A DNA stretch of 50,938 nucleotides, taken from a virus. Taxonomy: Duplodnaviria; Heunggongvirae; Uroviricota; Caudoviricetes. Positions within the stretch are counted from its first letter, which is position 1; every line of letters starts with the position of its first letter. The stretch lies in IMG/VR virus record IMGVR_UViG_2636415959_000002. One strand, written 5' to 3'. The translations under genes and the position numbers were made by a program. The notes below the pieces were generated by a model. The model did not search any database. It saw only the letters and a list, made by a program, of their open reading frames with translations, and was not told the DNA's origin. Positions 5,087-50,938 of the stretch are shown piece after piece.

Positions 5087-5704
5087 TTAAGGATTCATTA
5101 AGCAATGTCGCAACCACCAATAAATCCGCTTAAGAACATGAAAATTGATTACTGGTATAAAGCGCTTACAGTTGTTGGCGCTGCGTTGTTTGTCTTTAAT
5201 GGAACGTCTTTTTTTGACAGATATCCCGTTGTTCCATTGGGTTTTTTGTCCTCCGGCATCTTTTTTATTGGTTTGGGGGAGTGGATTAATCACCCTCTCA
5301 AAGTGAGATTTATTGGTCCTGGAGTTTGGACTCGTGGATATAATCGTTCTTCGTGCGCACTCGGTATCATCTTCGACATACTTGGTTGTTTCCTGATTGT
5401 TACAGGAGTCGTCAAGTTCTTCTGATGTAAAACCGCAAATGGGGCACGTAACGGGAATTTTGAAAAGCGTTTCTCCGGGTTCCAGAACAAAATTTTCTGC
5501 GGTCTGATTTTGCTTCTCATATTTGTGCTCCGCGTCATTGTGAGAGCACATTCTTATTCTGAGTGCCTGTTTAAACTCACTGAAGCTGAGAGCTTCTTCG
5601 CCTTCGGCAAGACCTTCGAAGTATTCTTCGTAAGCCTTTTCCATGATTGTGTCGAAATCCATATCACTCACCTGAGTTTCTTTCCAGCCAGCGACGGGCA
5701 CCAT
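5087..5704 (-). CDS. Hypothetical acidic protein with CxxC motif (3' half may be non-coding)
   Basis: 205-aa ORF; N-terminal ~100 aa acidic with CPICGF; C-terminal half is low-complexity and exactly antisense to the plus-strand membrane ORF 5105..5425. Confidence 0.3.
   Translation of the reverse strand: MVPVAGWKETQVSDMDFDTIMEKAYEEYFEGLAEGEEALSFSEFKQALRIRMCSHNDAEHKYEKQNQTAENFVLEPGETLFKIPVTCPICGFTSEELDDSCNNQETTKYVEDDTECARRTIISTSPNSRTNKSHFERVINPLPQTNKKDAGGQKTQWNNGISVKKRRSIKDKQRSANNCKRFIPVINFHVLKRIYWWLRHCLMNP
5105..5425 (+). CDS. Small integral membrane protein (about 3 predicted TM segments)
   Basis: 106-aa ORF with three hydrophobic stretches (VVGAALFVFNGTSFF, LGFLSSGIFFIGLG, ALGIIFDILGCFLIVTGVV); AGGA upstream of the ATG; antisense to the 3' half of ORF 5087..5704, so only one of the two is likely real. 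Confidence 0.35.
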   Translation: MSQPPINPLKNMKIDYWYKALTVVGAALFVFNGTSFFDRYPVVPLGFLSSGIFFIGLGEWINHPLKVRFIGPGVWTRGYNRSSCALGIIFDILGCFLIVTGVVKFF

Positions 5705-7292: not shown

Positions 7293-7363
7293 CTCGCAAT
7301 ATTCATACCGGATCACTTCCGGCAATTTATGAGTAAAAAGATTCGGTATCAAAAGAGGTGAGT

Positions 7364-8434
7364 ATGGCTAACGCCTGGCTCAGATTATGGCATGACATGC
7401 CAAATGACCCTAAGTGGCGAACAATTGCCAGGGTGTCAGGGCAGCCAATTGCAACAGTGATGGCAGTGTATATCCACCTCTTGGTGAGCGCGTCACGAAA
7501 TGTCACGCGAGGTCACATTGATGTCACGACAGAAGATTTGGCAAGTGCGCTCGACGTGACAGAAGAGGTAATTGATTCAATTTTGCAGACGATGCAGGGG
7601 CGGGTACTTGATGGTGATTTAATCACTGGATGGGAAAAACGCCAGGTGCTTAAAGAGGACAATGGCAATATTTCGCAAACCGCAAAATCTCCTGCAGAGC
7701 GCAAGAGGGCGCAGCGAGAGAGGGAAAGAAAGCGGGAACAAAATGGCGATTGTCACGGCGCGTCACGAAATGTCACGCACATGTCACGACGAGTCACGAC
7801 AGATAAAGATACAGATAAAGATACAGATCAAGAAGATCAAAACACTATGGTCCATGGCGTAAAAAACGCCACGAACCAGGCAGGGGATGTTCAGACCGTC
7901 AATCTTGGTCAGCCAGCAGGCACGACACCGGAAGCCGATTCAGCGTATGCGCTGAAAGCCGATTCGGGCGCTGTGCAGCAGGTGATGACCGCAAGGCCGG
8001 AGCAATCACACCAACTGCAGCAGCCCGAAGCCGATTCCGCCATTCAGCGGGAAGCCGATCGGGTAGTCCCGGAAAACACCGGGCAGTCTGTGGGACGAGT
8101 GGATTATCCGGATGTGTTCGAACAGGTCTGGCGGGAGTACCCGTTGCGTGCCGGAGCAAACCCGAAGAAATCCGCTTTCAGTGCCTGGAAGGCCAGATTA
8201 CGCGAGGGGGTGCCACCAGAGGCCATGCTGGATGGCGTGAGGCGTTACGCAAGATACTTGGCGGCTACCGGGAAAACGGGAACGGAATTTGTTCAGCGAG
8301 CGACGACGTTTTTTGGACCGGACCGGAATTTTGAGAACCCCTGGTTGCTCCCGGTAAGCGGCACGAACAACCAGCGTTGTGTGAATCATATTTCTGAACC
8401 GGATAACGAAATTCCGCCGGGCTTCAGGGGGTAA
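7364..8434 (+). CDS. ydaU: Replication initiation protein, YdaU/DUF1376-like
   Basis: 356 aa from ATG with AAGAGG RBS; N-terminus MANAWLRLWHDMPNDPKWRTIARVSGQPI typical of the YdaU family; iteron arrays lie inside the coding sequence. Confidence 0.65.
   Translation: MANAWLRLWHDMPNDPKWRTIARVSGQPIATVMAVYIHLLVSASRNVTRGHIDVTTEDLASALDVTEEVIDSILQTMQGRVLDGDLITGWEKRQVLKEDNGNISQTAKSPAERKRAQRERERKREQNGDCHGASRNVTHMSRRVTTDKDTDKDTDQEDQNTMVHGVKNATNQAGDVQTVNLGQPAGTTPEADSAYALKADSGAVQQVMTARPEQSHQLQQPEADSAIQREADRVVPENTGQSVGRVDYPDVFEQVWREYPLRAGANPKKSAFSAWKARLREGVPPEAMLDGVRRYARYLAATGKTGTEFVQRATTFFGPDRNFENPWLLPVSGTNNQRCVNHISEPDNEIPPGFRG
7490..7560 (+). repeat. Iteron cluster 1: GTCACG/GTCACA hexamers at about 10-bp phasing
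   Basis: gtcacg at ~7492, 7502, 7523, gtcaca at ~7512, and an inverted copy cgtgac at ~7555. Confidence 0.5.
7750..7832 (+). repeat. Iteron cluster 2 (five GTCACG at 10-11 bp spacing) followed by a duplicated 12-mer, putative replication origin
   Basis: gtcacg at ~7752, 7762, 7772, 7783, 7793; then agataaagatac x2 (~7801-7824) and an A-rich tail; the 19-mer cgtcacgaaatgtcacgc is shared with cluster 1. Confidence 0.5.
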
Positions 8435-9159: not shown

Positions 9160-10551
9160 TTATGCTTCATGTTGCTTTTTGAGATCGCTTCTAGCATAGC
9201 TCCACTCAATAATGTTGTCGGGTCGTTGCTGATCGAAAAGGATACGGGATTCAATACCATTACCTAAAAAGCTGGTATTCCCATCTACGTAAGAAGCTAT
9301 CCCTTGTGAACCAACACGAAGAATATTTTCTAATGGCTGCTTTGTTCTTGCTGCATCGCTAAGGAGATATAAACCCGGGTACGTTTTGTTAGCACGGTGA
9401 AAAAAAAGTTCATTGTCAAAACACATGACGATGATTATTTGTCCCGACATGAGATCGGAGAGCATTTCAGTTGGCAGATGCAAACTCATAAATGGTCGAG
9501 ACAAAGGGTCAAAGAATGAATCATTTATATTCACAACAGGGCTTTTTATACCGAGACTATCCATCCATCCATTGAAGGCAACAAAGCCCATTTCAGAATC
9601 ACGGTACATACCTAAGAACAAACATTCATCAATAGTATCAATTGCCCAATTTTTTCCTCCGCGAATAATCTCCCACATTTTAACTAAGCGGTGGGTATAA
9701 AATTCAGACGGATGATCTATCTCATTGATTTTAACTTTAGACTGATGAAAGTTGTCAAAGCCCTCGCCAGTATTAATCGCCTCCAGAACATTCATGCCAC
9801 GAATGATTTGCCTTTTTATGCGATTAAATTGCTTAACATCATTATCAGGCATATTGTTAATGAAGTTTTCTTCAAAGTGCGGACATTCTGAGATAACAGA
9901 AAATTCAGCAGCTTCATAAAGCTCATTATTCTTTTCACCTGTTTTAACTTCCACGAGCTGGAAGCCATCCAGTAGATTAAAGGTGACTAAATCTCCCACA
10001 TGAACAAATGTGCTCATGTCAGAGACAATCGCTACGGAGTGTTTGTCCTGGTTGATAAGATCGGCTGCGACCATAGAATCAATTATGTTATCTTCTGATA
10101 GATTGTCATTGCTTGCATTAATAGGTAAACGCCGCAAACTAGAGTGTTCTTCATCAAGAATGCTCCAAATTATTGAGTCAATACAACGGCGAAGAATAAG
10201 AATTTCAAATTTTTTTAAACTTATTTCATCAATACACTTTTCTTTATTTTCTTTATCCTTGTTTCGATGGTGCTCTTTTTTTTCAGTTTCCAATCTTTTT
10301 ATATCTCTCAGCCGAATAATAATCTCAAAAGATATGATTTTTTGTGAGTCTTTCCAATTTTTGAGACAGGTTTCATACTCTGCAAGAAAATCCTCATCAT
10401 TGGAAGGTAGTTCTTGAATTGGATTCCCTCCCCTTATCATTTTGGCAAGTGCATGCATTAAAGATACATAATGAGGCGATAAAATTGTCCAAAACTTCCT
10501 AAACGGTTTGTACTTTTCAAGAAAAGTTGACTCATCAGTATAATTCATCAT
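9160..10551 (-). CDS. Uncharacterised 463-aa protein, downstream partner of the AbiH-like gene; possible PD-(D/E)xK nuclease-like core
   Basis: ORF 9160..10557; likely ATG at 10551 (MMNYTDEST) with GAGG upstream; AT-rich codon usage; segment FVHVGDLVTFNLLDGFQLVEVKTGEKN fits D-x13-E-x-K; no Walker motif or other signature recognised. Confidence 0.6.
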   Translation of the reverse strand: MMNYTDESTFLEKYKPFRKFWTILSPHYVSLMHALAKMIRGGNPIQELPSNDEDFLAEYETCLKNWKDSQKIISFEIIIRLRDIKRLETEKKEHHRNKDKENKEKCIDEISLKKFEILILRRCIDSIIWSILDEEHSSLRRLPINASNDNLSEDNIIDSMVAADLINQDKHSVAIVSDMSTFVHVGDLVTFNLLDGFQLVEVKTGEKNNELYEAAEFSVISECPHFEENFINNMPDNDVKQFNRIKRQIIRGMNVLEAINTGEGFDNFHQSKVKINEIDHPSEFYTHRLVKMWEIIRGGKNWAIDTIDECLFLGMYRDSEMGFVAFNGWMDSLGIKSPVVNINDSFFDPLSRPFMSLHLPTEMLSDLMSGQIIIVMCFDNELFFHRANKTYPGLYLLSDAARTKQPLENILRVGSQGIASYVDGNTSFLGNGIESRILFDQQRPDNIIEWSYARSDLKKQHEA

Positions 10552-10640
10552 AACCAAACCTCATTCCTCTTATCTATTTTCCTCAAGGTATAAAATACCA
10601 GCCTTTTTTACATAATTATAGTTATAATATGAAGTCTCAT

Positions 10641-11510
10641 TCAGATATCTTCATACTGTACGTAAGAAATATTTGAGCCTCTGATACCATAATCTTCTAA
10701 ACTGCCTGATTTTTTCTCACCTCTATATAAAGCAACTATCCATCGAGCATTTTCTTGGATGCTTTTATTTATTTCAGTAAAGTATTCACCGTCAACTTCG
10801 GCGAGCGAGTGGCCTAAAACGATGACCTCGTCCACATTTTTAAGCGATGAGAAAAAAACGTTTTCTTCTTTAATTATGTCTTCGCTGGGCTTGAATGTAT
10901 TACCGAAGTATTCGTTTATTCTGTCGTATGCCTCTGCTATTCTTGTATCTTGATCCGGTCCTATATATGGATTTAGTGACTTTTCCACCCTAAAACTATG
11001 ACCAAGTATGAGATCGTCATCGTAACTACAATTGCCGTGAATATGTATGATTTGCTCGTCTGGAACGGCATAGATCTGCTGCAAGGTATTTGTATAATTA
11101 AATGAAAAATAGATGCTTTCTCTTGGTATGGGCGGGATGTATTGCTTAGGATTGTAAGCATCGGCTATGTTAATCCCTTTAACCCAATCAGCGAATTGCT
11201 CCTTCAAACGAGCTGACAGCATTTGTGTGATTTTATTTACTTCATATTGGTAATCGTGATGATAAGCATCGCTCCAATCATCGGTATTGTATGAAGCCAA
11301 AAATATCTCACTGTTTTGAAGGATAAGCTCATAATCAATTTCACCTAAAGCATTTTCTAACTCATTCCACTCGTCCCCAGCAGGAATGTATTCTTCTATC
11401 GCGTCATATAGATCTTGGTCATTTTTTTCTACATACGACTTAAAGTGCTTGTATCCTGTTGGTAAGCCATGACGCATGTCAAATCCATTTCCTATTATGT
11501 AAAGCCTCAT
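10641..11510 (-). CDS. AbiH-family (abortive infection) protein
   Basis: 289 aa from internal ATG (MRLYIIGNGFDMRHGLPTGYKHF) with AAGGGA RBS; the IIGNGFD-x-HGL-x-T-Y motif is the N-terminal signature I recall for the AbiH family; AT-rich. Confidence 0.7.
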   Translation of the reverse strand: MRLYIIGNGFDMRHGLPTGYKHFKSYVEKNDQDLYDAIEEYIPAGDEWNELENALGEIDYELILQNSEIFLASYNTDDWSDAYHHDYQYEVNKITQMLSARLKEQFADWVKGINIADAYNPKQYIPPIPRESIYFSFNYTNTLQQIYAVPDEQIIHIHGNCSYDDDLILGHSFRVEKSLNPYIGPDQDTRIAEAYDRINEYFGNTFKPSEDIIKEENVFFSSLKNVDEVIVLGHSLAEVDGEYFTEINKSIQENARWIVALYRGEKKSGSLEDYGIRGSNISYVQYEDI

Positions 11511-11968
11511 TGTTTTTCCCTTAGTCGAATTGTATAAAAATACTAACATGGCCTGCTCCACGTTGACTACTATCCCCTCCTTTGAGTAATGCCTTCATCA
11601 GATGTAACAACATTTGCGAGCTTCCACAGTTCGCTCAAAGCGGACTAGAAGGTTAGCTTGCGTCGGACTTGGCGTATTTAAAGAAGTGCTGGTGGAGACT
11701 GGTTGTTGTGTTCCATTTCTACAGAACAAAATCACAGAAACTATACCCAATAGTTATATTGAATCAATGATGAGACAGCCTCATATTTATCAGGACTGGT
11801 GTACGTCCAATACAGGAGGTTGTCGTGCTGGTTCTCAAATGTGCGCTAGCTATTGCGGCTGTAATGGCAATTTATTGTCTTGCTGTTGTTCTTACGGATC
11901 GCCTTTCTGATTGATTTTATATTGGCGAGGTGACGTGAGTTAAGTAGAATTGCTGCGGGTGCTTGAGG

Positions 11969-16954: not shown

Positions 16955-17265
16955 TCCAATGACTCAAGGCTATGAACTGGTTGTGAAAGGAGTCCGTAAT
17001 TTTGAGAATAAAGTTACGGTAACTGTAGCCTTACAGGACAAAGAACGCTTTGACGGTGAAATTTTTGGCCTGGATGTCGCCATGGACCGTGTTGAAGGAG
17101 CTACGCTGGAGTTTTATGAGGCAGCAGCCAGAATGAGCGTCCGGCAAGTCTTCCTGGAAGTAGCAGAAAAATTGTCAGAAAAGTTGAGTCTTATCTGCAG
17201 CATCAGTACTCCTTTAAGATTGAAAATCCTGCCAATAAGCACGAGCGTCCTCATCATAAATATCT

Positions 17266-18293
<1,028 letters not shown>

Positions 18294-20699: not shown

Positions 20700-20955
20700 C
20701 GTTGTGACATGCAGATGATAATTATTATCATTTTGCGGGTCCTTTCCGGCGATCCGACAGGTTACGGGGCGGCGACCTCGCGGGTTTTCGCTATTTATGA
20801 AAATTTTCCGGTTTAAGGCGTTTCCGTTCTTCTTCGTTGTAACTTAATGTTTTTATTTAAAATACCCCCTGAAAAGAAAGGAAACGACAGGTGCTGAAAA
20901 CGAGCTTTTGGGCCTCTGTCGTTTCCTTTCTCTGTTTTTGGCCGTGGAATGAACA
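20700..20955 (+). other. cos: Lambda-type cos site (cosQ-cosN-cosB) upstream of Nu1
   Basis: Lambda right-end sequence ...cgacaggttacg followed by the 12-nt cohesive-end sequence gggcggcgacct (~20767-20778) and a cosB-like region with IHF/terminase-binding repeats up to the Nu1 start. Confidence 0.75.
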
Positions 20956-21475
20956 ATGGAAGTCAACAAAAAGCAGCTGGCTGACATTTTCGGTGCGAGT
21001 ATCCGTACCATTCAGAACTGGCAGGAACAGGGAATGCCCGTTCTGCGAGGCGGTGGCAAGGGTAATGAGGTGCTTTATGACTCTGCCGCCGTTATAAGAT
21101 GGTATGCCGAAAGGGATGCTGAAATTGAGAACGAAAAGCTGCGCCGGGAAGTTGAAGAACTGCGGCAGGCCAGCGAGGCAGATCTCCAGCCAGGGACTAT
21201 TGAGTACGAACGCCATCGACTTACGCGTGCGTAGGCCGACGCACAGGAACTGAAGAATGCCAGAGACTCCGCTGAAGTGGTGGAAACCGCATTCTGTACT
21301 TTCGTGCTGTCGCGGATCGCAGGTGAAATTGCCAGTATTCTCGACGGGATCCCCCTGTCGGTGCAGCGGCGTTTTCCGGAACTGGAAAACCGACATGTTG
21401 ATTTCCTGAAACGGGATATCATCAAAGCCATGAACAAAGCAGCCGCGCTGGATGAACTGATACCGGGGTTGCTGA

Positions 21476-21501
<26 letters not shown>
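20956..21501 (+). pseudogene. nu1: Terminase small subunit Nu1 interrupted by an in-frame amber (TAG) codon
   Basis: ORFs 20956..21234 and 21277..21501 are in the same frame and together reconstitute a 181-codon lambda Nu1-like protein (MEVNKKQLADIFGASIRTIQNWQEQGMP ... LSEYIEQSG); single TAG at 21232-21234. Confidence 0.85.
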
Positions 21502-25182
<3,681 letters not shown>

Positions 25183-30472: not shown

Positions 30473-30895
30473 ATGTTCCTGAAAACCGAATCATTTGAAC
30501 ATAACGGTGTGACCGTCACGCTTTCTGAACTGTCAGCCCTGCAGCGTATTGAGCATCTCGCCCTGATGAAACGGCAGGCAGAACAGGCGGAGTCAGACAG
30601 CAACCGGAAGTTTACTGTGGAAGACGCCATCAGAACCGGCGCGTTTCTGGTGGCGATGTCCCTGTGGCATAACCATCCGAAGAAGACAAAGCTGCCTTCC
30701 ATGAATTAAGCCGTTAAACAGATTGAGCAGGAAGTGCTTACCACCTGGCCCACAGAGGCAATTTCTCATGCTGAAAACGTGGTGTACCGGCTGTCCGGTA
30801 TGTATGAGTTTGTGGTGAATGATGCTCCTGAACAGGCAGAGGACGCCGGGCCTGCAGAGCCTGTTTCTGCGGGAAAGTGTTCGACGGTGAGCTGA
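30473..30895 (+). pseudogene. G: Tail assembly chaperone G interrupted by an in-frame ochre (TAA) codon
   Basis: ORF stops at TAA 30707-30709 after ...KKTKLPSMN; the same frame continues AVKQIEQEVLTTWPTEAISHAENVVYRLSGMYEFVV...SAGKCSTVS to TGA at 30893-30895, restoring a 140-codon gpG; the G-T slippery heptamer G GGA AAG (~30871-30877) is intact. Confidence 0.8.
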
Positions 30896-43817: not shown

Positions 43818-44334
43818 TGGCATTCAGAATGAGTGAACAACCACGGACCATAAAAATTTATAATCTGCTGGCCGGAACTAATGAATTTATTGGTGAAGGT
43901 GATGCATATATTCCGCCTCATACAGGTCTGCCAGCAAACAGTACCGATATTGCACCGCCAGATATTCCGGCTGGCTTCGTGGCTGTTTTCAACAGTGATG
44001 AGTCATCGTGGCATCTCGTTGAAGATCATCGGGGTAAAATGGTTTATGACGTGGCTTCCGGCGACGCGTTATTTATTTCTGAACTCGGTCCGTTACCGGA
44101 AAATGTTACCTGGTTATCGCCGGAAGGGGAGTTTCAGAAGTGGAACGGTACAGTCTGGGTGAAGGATACGGAAGCAGAAAAACTGTTCCGGATCCGGGAG
44201 GCGGAAGAAACAAAAAACAGCCTGATGCAGGTAGCCAGTGAGCATATAGCGGTAAGCGTCGTCTGAGTACCGTCTGGTCCCGAATCCAGGATCCTGTAAC
44301 TTAAGCACCCACTTATTTTGCAGGTGGACACCTC

Positions 44335-44718
44335 ATGCGCGCTAAAGAAAGACTTCCCCGGAAACACTATTCCCCTGAATTCAAAATGGAACTGGTCAGG
44401 CTGGCTCTTGAAGAAGAAGGCAGTATTGCCGCACTGGCCCGGAAACATGACGTCAATGATAACCTGCTCTTTAAATGGATAAGGCTCTGGCAGCGTGAAG
44501 GGCGGGTCTGTCGGCCCCGAAAAAACTCATCGTCGCTTCCTGCCCTGATACCCGTGCAGCTTCAGGCGGGCTCTTCTCTCCCAACCTTCGAACTACCATC
44601 CTGCTCTCCTCCCGCTACCTGCCACATAAAATGTCGGGGAGGAGAAATAACACTGACTCATCCCTCTGCTGAACTCATGAGCACTGTCCTGCGCGAACTG
44701 ATGCGGGGGCCGGTATGA
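44335..44718 (+). CDS. IS66 accessory protein (orf1/TnpA-like, HTH)
   Basis: 127 aa, MRAKERLPRKHYSPEFKMELVRLALEEEGSIAALARKHDVNDNLLFKWI... Confidence 0.8.
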   Translation: MRAKERLPRKHYSPEFKMELVRLALEEEGSIAALARKHDVNDNLLFKWIRLWQREGRVCRPRKNSSSLPALIPVQLQAGSSLPTFELPSCSPPATCHIKCRGGEITLTHPSAELMSTVLRELMRGPV

Positions 44719-45062
44719 TAAATCTTCCCGCAGGCACAAAAATCTGGCTGGTTGCCGGTATCACCGATATGCGCAACGGCTTCAATGGCCTCGCCGCAAA
44801 GGTGCAGACCGCGCTGAAAGATGACCCGATGTCCGGCCACGTCTTCATCTTCCGGGGACGCAGCGGCAGTCAGGTAAAACTGCTCTGGTCCACCGGCGAT
44901 GGTCTGTGCCTGCTGACAAAGCGACTGGAACGTGGTCGCTTCGCCTGGCCCTCAGCCCGCGATGGCAAAGTGTTCCTGACGCCGGCGCAACTGGCGATGC
45001 TGATGGAAGGTATCGACTGGCGACAGCCAAAGCGGTTACTGACATCCCTGACCATGTTGTAG
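44715..45062 (+). CDS. IS66 Orf2 (TnpB-like) protein
   Basis: 115 aa, MINLPAGTKIWLVAGITDMRNGFNGLAAKVQTALKDDPMSGHVFIFRGRSG..., hallmark IS66 Orf2 sequence. Confidence 0.85.
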   Translation: MINLPAGTKIWLVAGITDMRNGFNGLAAKVQTALKDDPMSGHVFIFRGRSGSQVKLLWSTGDGLCLLTKRLERGRFAWPSARDGKVFLTPAQLAMLMEGIDWRQPKRLLTSLTML

Positions 45063-45111
45063 CGCTCTTTATCCTGGTTGTCGCAGAATAAGCCTGGTAA
45101 AATACAGGCTT

Positions 45112-46647
45112 ATGAACGATACCTCTTCTGACGACATCCTTCTGCTGAAACAGCGCCTGGCCGAACAGGAAGCGTTGATCCACGCCCTGCAGGAAAAGCT
45201 GAGCAACCGGGAACGCGAAATAGACCATCTGCAGGCGCAACTGGATAAGCTGCGCCGGATGAACTTCGGCAGTCGTTCCGAAAAGGTATCCCGCCGTATC
45301 GCGCAAATGGAAGCTGACCTGAACCTGCTGCAGCAGGAAAGCGATACGCTGACCGGCCGGGTGGATGACCCGGCAGTGCAGCGCCCGCTGCGTCAGACCC
45401 GCACCCGCAAACCGTTCCCTGAGTCACTCCCACGGGATGAGAAGCGGCTGCTGCCGACTGAGCCGTGTTGCCCGGAGTGCGGTGGTTCGCTGAGTTACCT
45501 GGGTGAGGATGCCGCCGAACAGCTGGAGCTGATGCGCAGCGCCTTCCGGGTTATCCGGACAGTCCGTGAAAAGCATGCCTGCCGTCGGTGCGATCGCATC
45601 GTTCAGGCCCCGGCTCCTTCGCGCCCCATCGAACGGGGGATCGCCGGACCGGGGCTGCTGGCCCGAGTGCTGACCTCAAAGTATGCAGAGCACACACCGC
45701 TGTATCGCCAGTCGGAGATCTATGCCCGCCAGGGTGTAGTGTTGAGTCGTTCTGTACTGTCGGGCTGGGTGGATGCGTGTTGTCGTCTGCTGGCACCGCT
45801 GGATGAAGCCCTTCAGCACTATGTCCTGACCGACGGCAAACTCCATGCTGACGATACGCCTGTCCCGGTGCTGTTGCCGGGCAATAAGAAGACGAAGACC
45901 GGGCGCTTATGGACGTACGTTCGAGACGACCGCAACGCCGGATCAGCGCTGGCCCCCGCAGTGTGGTTCGCTTACAGCCCGGACAGAAAAGGTATCCACC
46001 CTCAGACCCATCTTGCAGGCTTCAGTGGCGTACTGCAGGCTGATGCCTACGCCGGGTTCAACGAGCTCTACCGCGACGGCCATATAAAGGAAGCCGCGTG
46101 CTGGGCCCATGCCCGCCGAAAAATCCACGATGTTCACGTCCGTACCCCGTCAGTCCTGACGGAGGAGGCGCTGAAACGGATCGGCGAGCTGTATGCCATC
46201 GAGTCGGAGATCAGAGGTAAAAGAGCAGAGGAACGGCAGGCAGTCCGGCACCAAAAAGTGCTGCCGCTGCTGGCGTCACTGGAGGGGTGGCTGCGGGAGA
46301 AACAGAAAACCCTCTCAAGGCACTCAGAACTGGCGAAGGCGTTCGGGTATGCGCTGAACCAGTGGCCGGCGCTGATCCGCTATGCAGAAGATGGCTGGGT
46401 GGAGGTGGATAATAACATTGCCGAAAACGCCCTACGACGGGTCAGTCTGGGGAGAAAAAACTGGCTGTTCTTCGGCTCGGATCATGGTGGTGAGCGCGGT
46501 GCGTCACTGTACAGTCTTATCGGGACGTGCAAATTAAACGGCGTGGATCCGGAACGCTATCTGCATTATGTACTTGATGTCATCGCCGACTGGCCTGTGA
46601 ACCGGGTGGGTGCTCTGCTCCCGTGGCGGGTTACTCTGCCTGCCTGA
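45112..46647 (+). CDS. IS66-family transposase (DDE)
   Basis: 511 aa with N-terminal leucine zipper, CxxC...CxxC zinc ribbon (CPECGG...CRRCD) and DDE core. Confidence 0.9.
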
Positions 46648-46934
46648 CCAGCTTCACTTCGTCAATACGGTTCTCACTGCACGCTTACATATAGCGCCAC
46701 TTCAGGATGCTGTAGATCTGGAAATCGCAACGGAGGAAGAAACCTCATTGCTGGAAGCCTGGAAAAAGTATCGGGTGTTGCTGAACCGTGTTGATACATC
46801 AACTGCACAGGATATTGAATGGCCAGCACTGCCGTAGGGTAAAACATATAAATTCTATAATTAGATGTATCTTTCCATTTACGGCAAGGAAGGGGGCTTG
46901 GAAGACGTAAAGCATCTCACACCGAGATTATTTT

Positions 46935-48859: not shown

Positions 48860-50143
48860 ATGGATTTCCAGTTATATTCGCTCGGCGCAGCGTTAGTGTT
48901 TCATGAAATATTTTTTCCTGAATCATCAACGGCAATGGCGTTAATTCTGGCAATGGGAACCTACGGTGCAGGTTATGTGGCGCGTATTGTCGGAGCATTT
49001 ATTTTCGGCAAAATGGGCGACAGAATAGGGCGTAAAAAAGTGCTCTTTATTACCATCACCATGATGGGGATCTGTACCACCTTAATTGGTGTGTTACCGA
49101 CCTATGCACAGATTGGTGTTTTTGCACCCATCTTGCTGGTGACGTTGCGTATTATTCAGGGGTTGGGTGCAGGTGCGGAAATTTCCGGTGCCGGTACGAT
49201 GCTGGCGGAATATGCGCCAAAAGGTAAGCGCGGAATTATCTCCTCATTTGTGGCTATGGGAACTAACTGCGGAACCTTGAGCGCAACGGCAATCTGGGCC
49301 TTTATGTTCTTCATTCTCAGTAAAGAGGAACTGCTGGCGTGGGGATGGCGTATACCGTTCCTGGCGAGCGTTGTCGTGATGGTCTTTGCTATCTGGTTGC
49401 GTATGAATCTGAAAGAAAGCCCGGTCTTTGAGAAGGTTAACGACAGTAACCAACCGACAGCAAAACCTGCACCTGCTGGTAGCATGTTCCAGAGCAAATC
49501 CTTCTGGCTGGCAACAGGGCTGCGTTTTGGTCAGGCGGGTAACTCCGGGTTAATTCAGACTTTCCTTGCAGGCTATTTAGTGCAGACGTTATTGTTTAAC
49601 AAAGCAATTCCAACAGATGCATTGATGATCAGTTCGATTCTCGGCTTTATGACCATTCCGTTCCTTGGTTGGTTATCCGATAAAATTGGTCGCCGGATCC
49701 CGTATATTATTATGAATACCTCCGCGATTGTGCTGGCATGGCCAATGCTTTCTATCATTGTAGATAAAAGCTATGCCCCGAGCACCATTATGGTTGCACT
49801 GATTGTGATTCATAACTGTGCGGTGCTGGGATTATTTGCTCTGGAAAACATTACCATGGCAGAAATGTTCGGCTGTAAAAACCGCTTTACCCGGATGGCT
49901 ATTTCTAAAGAAATTGGTGGTCTTATCGCTTCCGGTTTTGGTCCTATCCTGGCGGGTATTTTCTGCACCATGACGGAATCCTGGTATCCGATCGCCATTA
50001 TGATCATGGCATATTCAGTGATTGGTTTAATCTCTGCGCTGAAAATGCCAGAGGTGAAAGACCGTGATTTAAGTGCGCTGGAAGACGCTGCGGAAGATCA
50101 ACCGCGTGTTGTAAGAGCTGCGCAACCTTCCAGAAGTCTGTAA
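48860..50143 (+). CDS. ydfJ: MFS-family metabolite:H+ symporter, probably N-terminally truncated by the prophage junction (YdfJ-like)
   Basis: 427 aa, multiple TM helices; MFS motif GKMGDRIGRKK unusually close to the N-terminus, suggesting about one TM helix is missing; AT-rich prophage DNA immediately upstream. Confidence 0.75.
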   Translation: MDFQLYSLGAALVFHEIFFPESSTAMALILAMGTYGAGYVARIVGAFIFGKMGDRIGRKKVLFITITMMGICTTLIGVLPTYAQIGVFAPILLVTLRIIQGLGAGAEISGAGTMLAEYAPKGKRGIISSFVAMGTNCGTLSATAIWAFMFFILSKEELLAWGWRIPFLASVVVMVFAIWLRMNLKESPVFEKVNDSNQPTAKPAPAGSMFQSKSFWLATGLRFGQAGNSGLIQTFLAGYLVQTLLFNKAIPTDALMISSILGFMTIPFLGWLSDKIGRRIPYIIMNTSAIVLAWPMLSIIVDKSYAPSTIMVALIVIHNCAVLGLFALENITMAEMFGCKNRFTRMAISKEIGGLIASGFGPILAGIFCTMTESWYPIAIMIMAYSVIGLISALKMPEVKDRDLSALEDAAEDQPRVVRAAQPSRSL

Positions 50144-50180: not shown

Positions 50181-50240
50181 ATTCAGGTGATGCTGCCAAC
50201 TTACTGATTTAGTGTATGATGGTGTTTTTGAGGTGCTCCA

Positions 50241-50516
50241 GTGGCTTCTGTTTCTATCAGCTGTCCCTCCTGTTCAGCTACTGACGGGGTGGTGCGTAAC
50301 GGCAAAAGCACCGCCGGACATCAGCGCTATCTCTGCTCTCACTGCCGTAAAACATGGCAACTGCAGTTCACTTACACCGCTTCTCAACCCGGTACGCACC
50401 AGAAAATCATTGATATGGCCATGAATGGCGTTGGATGCCGGGCAACTGCCCGCATTATGGGCGTTGGCCTCAACACGATTTTACGTCACTTAAAAAACTC
50501 AGGCCGCAGTCGGTAA
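50241..50516 (+). CDS. insA: IS1 InsA
   Basis: 91 aa [43 protein letters not shown]... Confidence 0.9.
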
Positions 50517-50938
50517 CCTCGCGCATACAGCCGGGCAGTGACGTCATCGTCTGCGCGGAAATGGACGAACAGTGGGGCTATGTCGGGGCTAAATCGCGCC
50601 AGCGCTGGCTGTTTTACGCGTATGACAGGCTCCGGAAGACGGTTGTTGCGCACGTATTCGGTGAACGCACGATGGCGACGCTGGGGCGTCTTATGAGCCT
50701 GCTGTCACCCTTTGACGTGGTGATATGGATGACGGATGGCTGGCCGCTGTATGAATCCCGCCTGAAGGGAAAGCTGCACGTAATCAGCAAGCGATATACG
50801 CAGCGAATTGAGCGGCATAACCTGAATCTGAGGCAGCACCTGGCACGGCTGGGACGGAAGTCGCTGTCGTTCTCAAAATCGGTGGAGCTGCATGACAAAG
50901 TCATCGGGCATTATCTGAACATAAAACACTATCAATAA
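50435..50938 (+). CDS. insB: IS1 InsB reading frame (expressed as InsAB' by -1 frameshift), complete to its stop
   Basis: ORF in the -1 frame relative to insA, containing the IS1 transposase catalytic region; ends ...IKHYQ* at 50938. Confidence 0.85.

Follow-up and report, generated by a model that had tools for sequence, protein, structure and literature searches.

A nonsense allele of the terminase small subunit gene Nu1 (nohA) in a lambda-like prophage at the Qin site of Escherichia coli G3/10

An amber codon lies within the terminase small subunit gene of a lambda-like prophage, and raises the question of whether DNA packaging has been lost recently, conditionally or for good, or whether the shortened gene has been kept for a function of its own. 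We addressed this question in a stretch of 50,938 nt (the window; IMG/VR record IMGVR_UViG_2636415959_000002), in which a sequence-only reading had described a 181-codon, lambda-like Nu1 frame split in two by a TAG codon. The list of ORFs agrees exactly with that description: 20956..21234 (92 aa, ATG start) and 21277..21501 (74 aa, GTG start) share one frame, and with read-through 20956..21501 comprises 181 codons and a stop. We consider it very probable that the locus is a natural loss-of-function nonsense allele of Nu1 (nohA) in the lambda-like Qin-site prophage of E. coli G3/10, and that it is the oldest lesion of an element that decayed independently thereafter. The features of the packaging region are listed below.

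20767..20778, + strand: cosN cohesive-end sequence GGGCGGCGACCT, identical to lambda in the cos alignment
20815..20935 (approximate limits), + strand: cosB with the small-terminase binding sites R3, R2 and R1, from the cos alignment
20956..21234, + strand: 5' part of Nu1/nohA, 92 codons and the amber codon; winged-helix DNA-binding/dimer domain (ORF list, Pfam, PDB)
21235..21501, + strand: 3' remainder of Nu1/nohA, the core and TerL-binding part; in frame, not translated from the Nu1 start
21476..23401, + strand: gene A (large terminase), intact, 641 aa; its start overlaps the end of Nu1

Alignment with the lambda record shows CAG (Gln93) at the codon where the window has TAG (21232-21234, + strand), in agreement with the sequence-only reading, and the mutated base is 21232, a C-to-T transition. 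Between the read-through gene and lambda Nu1 there are six nucleotide differences and three residue changes (K48R, Q93* and L132I), leaving 178 of the 181 residues identical. Across a 1001-base stretch that includes the gene, the window is 99.9% identical to its nearest complete-genome relatives, ECONIH5 and LR536430; the sole difference from these, as from many complete-genome relatives, is the C-to-T change at 21232. The intact allele of the nearest relative, which equals the read-through sequence of the window, matches the Pfam profile Phage_Nu1 (PF07471) over positions 1-164 of 164 (E 5.6e-101); the 5' piece in the window matches positions 1-92 of the 164 (E 2e-57) and the 3' piece positions 109-164. 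Residues 1-98 of the intact relative's Nu1 align to chain B of PDB entry 6HN7 and residues 1-68 to 1J9I, with K48R as the single change.

The surroundings of the gene are those of a lambda-type Nu1, with cosN, R3, R2 and R1 directly upstream and a 3' end that extends past the start codon of the large terminase gene. The three R sites are the same as in lambda, and the substitutions in cosB relative to lambda fall only between them. Gene A shows 0 amino-acid differences from the annotated terminase large subunit of the closest relative. The earlier description of cos and A as intact is therefore correct, as cosN and the R sites match lambda and A is identical in protein to that of the relative. 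A functional gene would have one frame joining the DNA-binding domain to the TerL-binding C-terminus, and here that frame is broken by the TAG at codon 93. Judged from the sequence, the window copy is Nu1 by descent and a pseudogene as it stands. A restart at the GTG at 21277, giving a separate C-terminal piece, is unlikely to matter, because the domains would be unlinked and inspection of the sequence upstream of this codon revealed no Shine–Dalgarno-like ribosome-binding motif.

The source of the window could be identified. Assembly GCA_000768425.1 (JPKI01000002.1; locus L007) is 100% identical to window positions 10956-31234, a run of 20,279 bases, and JPKI00000000 is E. coli G3/10 (DSM 16443), a strain of the probiotic Symbioflor 2 (PMC4358396). 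The protein collection likewise assigns the truncated tfaQ product of the window to Escherichia coli G3/10 (KGM61333.1).

The window aligns at 99.4% to loci annotated rspA-rspB, int ... dicB ... cspB/F/I ... nohA ... tfaQ-pinQ-ydfK, ydfJ. The left flank, rspB, is known from the annotation of the relatives, and the window itself opens with int (20-1315). Downstream of int lie xis, an exonuclease gene, ydfD, dicB, ydfA, repressor-like and cro-like genes and a ydaT-like gene, followed by AbiH, hokD, ydfU, the antiterminator gene ydfT, cspF/B, the lysis genes, cspI, gnsB, ydfO and ynfO. The late region then runs from cos through nohA (= Nu1), A through J, lom, stf and tfaQ to pinQ, ydfK and ydfJ (48860-50143). 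By this gene order, the element is a lambdoid prophage of the Qin type, occupying the Qin site with rspB on one side and ydfJ on the other.

Some smaller features of the element were also observed. Shortly past ydfJ, an IS1-type element (about 50185-50938, with a DDE_Tnp_IS1 ORF at 50435-50938) runs off the end of the window, at a place where the relatives have ydfI. The ydfR gene (DUF1327; 16959-17348) has 129 codons and overlaps the lysozyme gene, the L002 form having 103 codons; tblastn places ydfR in two frames, indicating a frameshift, and the same 129-codon form occurs in other amber carriers. At the ynfR/ynfN junction (19155/19156), a T is deleted relative to carriers L004, L005, L006 and L008, a deletion common only to the window and L007. 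The position of a replication gene, after the cro-like and YdaT-like genes, is occupied by a gene for a 358-aa protein (7358-8434), for which Pfam gave no match and PADLOC only a chance-level match.

How widely the amber codon is shared bears on the claim, made in the sequence-only reading, that it is a very recent single-base lesion. A mutation private to this genome and of very recent date, in a prophage that is functional in other respects, or an error of sequencing or assembly, would agree with the single base in 1 kb that separates the window from the nearest complete genomes, and with the absence of the allele from complete genomes and phage records. In a set of 5,426 complete E. coli genomes, a 61-mer centred on the T of the TAG had homologues at 5,681 places spread over 3,879 genomes, and 0 of them matched exactly; 74 phage records likewise contained no exact match. 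A shorter probe, a 31-mer with the T at its centre so that each seed word contains it, also had no match in the complete E. coli genomes, which excludes a 60/61 match hiding the T plus another change. No exact match to a TAG-bearing 34-mer was found in viral contigs or in a second genome collection, which is uninformative on this point as it contains a single genome for each species.

Against a private mutation, the exact 92-aa product was located in 315 index blocks and, by cluster look-up, on 182 public contigs from NCBI isolates, ENA metagenomes and Logan, although a contig end falling at residue 92 may account for some of these; for the uninterrupted 181-aa form of this sequence the number of contigs is at least 1,000. 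The TAG 61-mer was confirmed in the DNA of six independent loci (L004-L009) from different laboratories and metagenomes, with flanks 100% identical, and L004-L008 are 100% identical to the window across the whole Nu1 gene. A further candidate carrier, L010, was rejected, as its contig ends 2 bases past codon 92 and hence gives no evidence for the TAG. The carriers are nearly identical to one another: 3 sites vary across the 10.5 kb of prophage that they share, and the 7.9 kb of flanking chromosome shows 1-3 differences among them, versus 11-13 to a non-carrier. The amber allele has been passed down within a tight cluster of strains. The occurrence of the TAG in independent assemblies rules out a sequencing error and argues against the proposal that resequencing might return CAG. 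A laboratory origin is unlikely, since E. coli isolates sequenced separately and metagenome assemblies are both among the carriers.

The condition of the remaining genes also speaks to this reading and to a second one. The late region was aligned without gaps to locus L003 and every annotated gene was translated in register, and two further lesions were found in the window copy.

30707..30709, + strand: ochre codon TAA in place of GAA (Glu79) in the tail assembly chaperone gene G (30473-30895)
44252..46688, + strand: IS66-family element of 2437 bp in the tail fibre assembly gene tfaQ (start 43817), defined by its junctions and target duplication

Because the ochre codon precedes the slippery site for the G-T frameshift (GGGAAAG at 30871), loss of both gpG and gpGT is expected. 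The truncated 78-aa form of G is confined to 5 contigs, those of the G3/10 type; carrier L008, separated from the window by five differences in 19 kb, retains an intact G. The IS66-family element has ORFs that match Pfam HTH_Tnp_1, TnpB_IS66 and DDE_Tnp_IS66, is flanked by an 8-bp target duplication (ATATAGCG) and is missing from L003-L006. It breaks tfaQ after codon 145, and the truncated product of 149 aa is on 5 contigs. Apart from the frameshifted ydfR, every other late gene and every early gene for which L002 served as reference has its full length.

The statement that the TAG is the only interruption thus stands for the Nu1 frame and fails for the element as a whole, and the implied picture of an otherwise healthy prophage is contradicted by an ochre codon in an essential gene and an insertion in tfaQ. 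These lesions, together with the six loci and the 182 contigs, leave a private mutation or error in a functional prophage with almost no credibility.

The same lesions bear on whether the allele is conditional, the prophage remaining productive through a host suppressor tRNA (e.g. supE) or natural leakiness of UAG. A change from CAG to TAG is exactly reversed by a glutamine-inserting suppressor, supE restoring the wild-type Gln, and cos, A and most late genes are intact. However, no tRNA gene was found within the window, amber suppressors do not read the TAA in G, and tfaQ carries an IS; moreover, A to stf is gone in most carriers, which would be unexpected were the late operon in use. The sequence-only reading had allowed for rescue of packaging by an amber suppressor; with the ochre in G and the IS in tfaQ, a suppressor alone would be insufficient for phage production. 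We therefore regard a conditional allele as highly improbable.

A decaying prophage with a nonsense pseudogene, our preferred reading, is also borne out by the structure of the element in the other carriers. In L004-L006, a 21-kb deletion joins window position 22642 to 43592, fusing codon 459 of A to the end of stf, and automatic grouping assigned this architecture to 19 of the 24 contigs examined. The A-to-stf junction was found in 0 of the 5,426 complete genomes; the deletion is therefore seen only together with the amber codon. The rarity of the G ochre and of the tfaQ insertion (5 contigs each) and the intact G of L008 indicate that the amber is older than these two lesions. From the contig counts for each lesion and a few loci, we infer that the amber came first and was followed by the 21-kb deletion in one branch and by the G ochre and IS66 insertion in the G3/10 branch. 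With the late operon no longer under selection, later lesions would have accumulated. The description of the amber as very recent cannot be sustained: the identical allele is on 182 contigs, its TAG was verified in six loci, and it predates the deletion, an exchange of the left arm, the IS66 insertion and the second nonsense codon.

The exchange of the left arm concerns the region at 9160-11561 (minus strand), where a homologue of the abortive-infection protein AbiH (306 aa; PADLOC AbiH, E 1.8e-27) adjoins a 465-aa early-region protein with no credible Pfam or PADLOC match. L006 and L008 have a RelB/ParE module in place of the AbiH of the window and L004/L005, and in L008 this module is preceded by an AAA/OLD-TOPRIM protein. 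The AbiH arm looks like a swappable slot for defence cargo.

The consequence of the amber codon for the terminase can be predicted from lambda. Translation from the Nu1 start would stop after residue 92, and the predicted product would keep the winged-helix cosB-binding/dimer domain and be without the oligomerisation core and the gpA-binding C-terminal part. In lambda, TerS residues 1-98 form a soluble DNA-binding dimer and residues 100-181 are needed for TerL binding (PMC6739421); TerS anchors TerL at cosB, leading to the correct nicking of cosN (PMC4669245). Since the TerL-binding part is missing, the 92-residue product may bind cosB, would be unable to recruit gpA, and packaging would be expected to fail. 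By analogy with lambda, no TerS2:TerL1 terminase would assemble at cos, cos would not be properly cut and no DNA would be packaged. The loss of terminase function proposed in the sequence-only reading is thus the expected consequence of the amber, the TerL-binding part being absent from the predicted product. Late transcription antiterminated by Q should resist Rho-dependent polarity. Both Nu1 and G are essential in lambda (PMC10695390).

The predicted properties of the fragment suggest one other reading, in which the truncated protein is kept for a function, either as a cosB-binding decoy against incoming phages of lambda specificity or as part of a cos-bearing element that depends on a helper. 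The soluble DNA-binding dimer formed by lambda TerS 1-98, a target for the Rpp proteins of PICIs, lends this idea some plausibility, as do the persistence of the allele through several rearrangements and the presence of the same 594 bases, including the TAG, in a bio-linked remnant (L009). Yet the carriers are so alike (3 differences in 10.5 kb) that persistence requires no selection, and the fragment would be expressed from the late operon only. Nu1 has been disrupted independently elsewhere, as in the frameshift allele P0011, which is what neutral decay predicts, and the bio-linked locus comes from a metagenome scaffold that may be chimeric. A kept function is in our judgement very unlikely. 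The particular proposal that the fragment acts as a cosB decoy upon late-operon expression, cutting the yield of phages of lambda specificity, or that the prophage is packaged by such helpers, is more doubtful still; if true, a decoy or helper role would explain the survival of the allele through several rearrangements.

Comparison with known systems places the nonsense allele among familiar cases. The gene is the same as lambda Nu1 in its position after cos, its overlap with A and its read-through protein (178/181 identical). Classical sus mutations are of this type, with an amber codon in a packaging gene that is essential (PMC10695390, citing Weisberg et al. 1979). The window resembles a suppressor-dependent mutant in having an amber in an essential gene, and departs from one in that the rest of the phage is not intact. 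In contrast to the laboratory sus mutants of lambda, the window amber is natural, resides in a prophage of wild E. coli, and is inherited along with further lesions and without upkeep in a suppressor host. The predicted 92-residue product corresponds to the N-terminal constructs of lambda TerS (1J9I, residues 1-68; 6HN7, residues 1-98, with the PICI protein RppC), with the difference that those are engineered soluble dimers whereas the fragment of the window is a predicted natural product.

The closest counterpart of the element as a whole is the Qin prophage of K-12, which occupies the same site (rspB ... ydfJ) and with which the annotation of the relatives shares the names dicB, ydfA, hokD, ydfU, ydfT, cspF/B/I, essD and rrrQ as well as gnsB, ydfO, ynfO, nohA, tfaQ, pinQ and ydfK. 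K-12 Qin has lost its head and tail operon, whereas the window copy, at about 48 kb, keeps the whole of it. The defects of the window copy are point lesions and one IS, not large deletions, and L004-L006 are nearer to the K-12 state.

At this locus a nonsense mutation has left a pseudogene in a prophage of the well-known Qin type that is itself decaying, and Nu1 is to our knowledge the best-studied terminase gene. Since its late operon carries three lesions, the prophage at the Qin site of probiotic strain G3/10 should not yield infectious particles alone, which is mildly reassuring for a commercial probiotic and otherwise of small consequence. The element also offers a small, clean example of the order of prophage decay, in which a terminase nonsense codon was followed by deletions, IS insertions and stops in sister strains.

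Two observations on related Nu1 sequences may be added. L009 (5560-6066), a remnant of a prophage, borders ybhB-bioABFCD-uvrB in the region of lambda attachment and carries the 594 bases identical to the window; the DNA upstream is only about 90% identical, and this metagenome scaffold reflects either recombination between prophages or an assembly chimera. P0011 (e.g. BDH32610.1) arises from an independent frameshift near codon 81 of a near-identical Nu1 in other E. coli, giving a 98-aa product. The head of P0011 precedes the same 74-aa tail ORF as in the window, and the count of contigs with this tail, 293, exceeds that for the amber head, 182.
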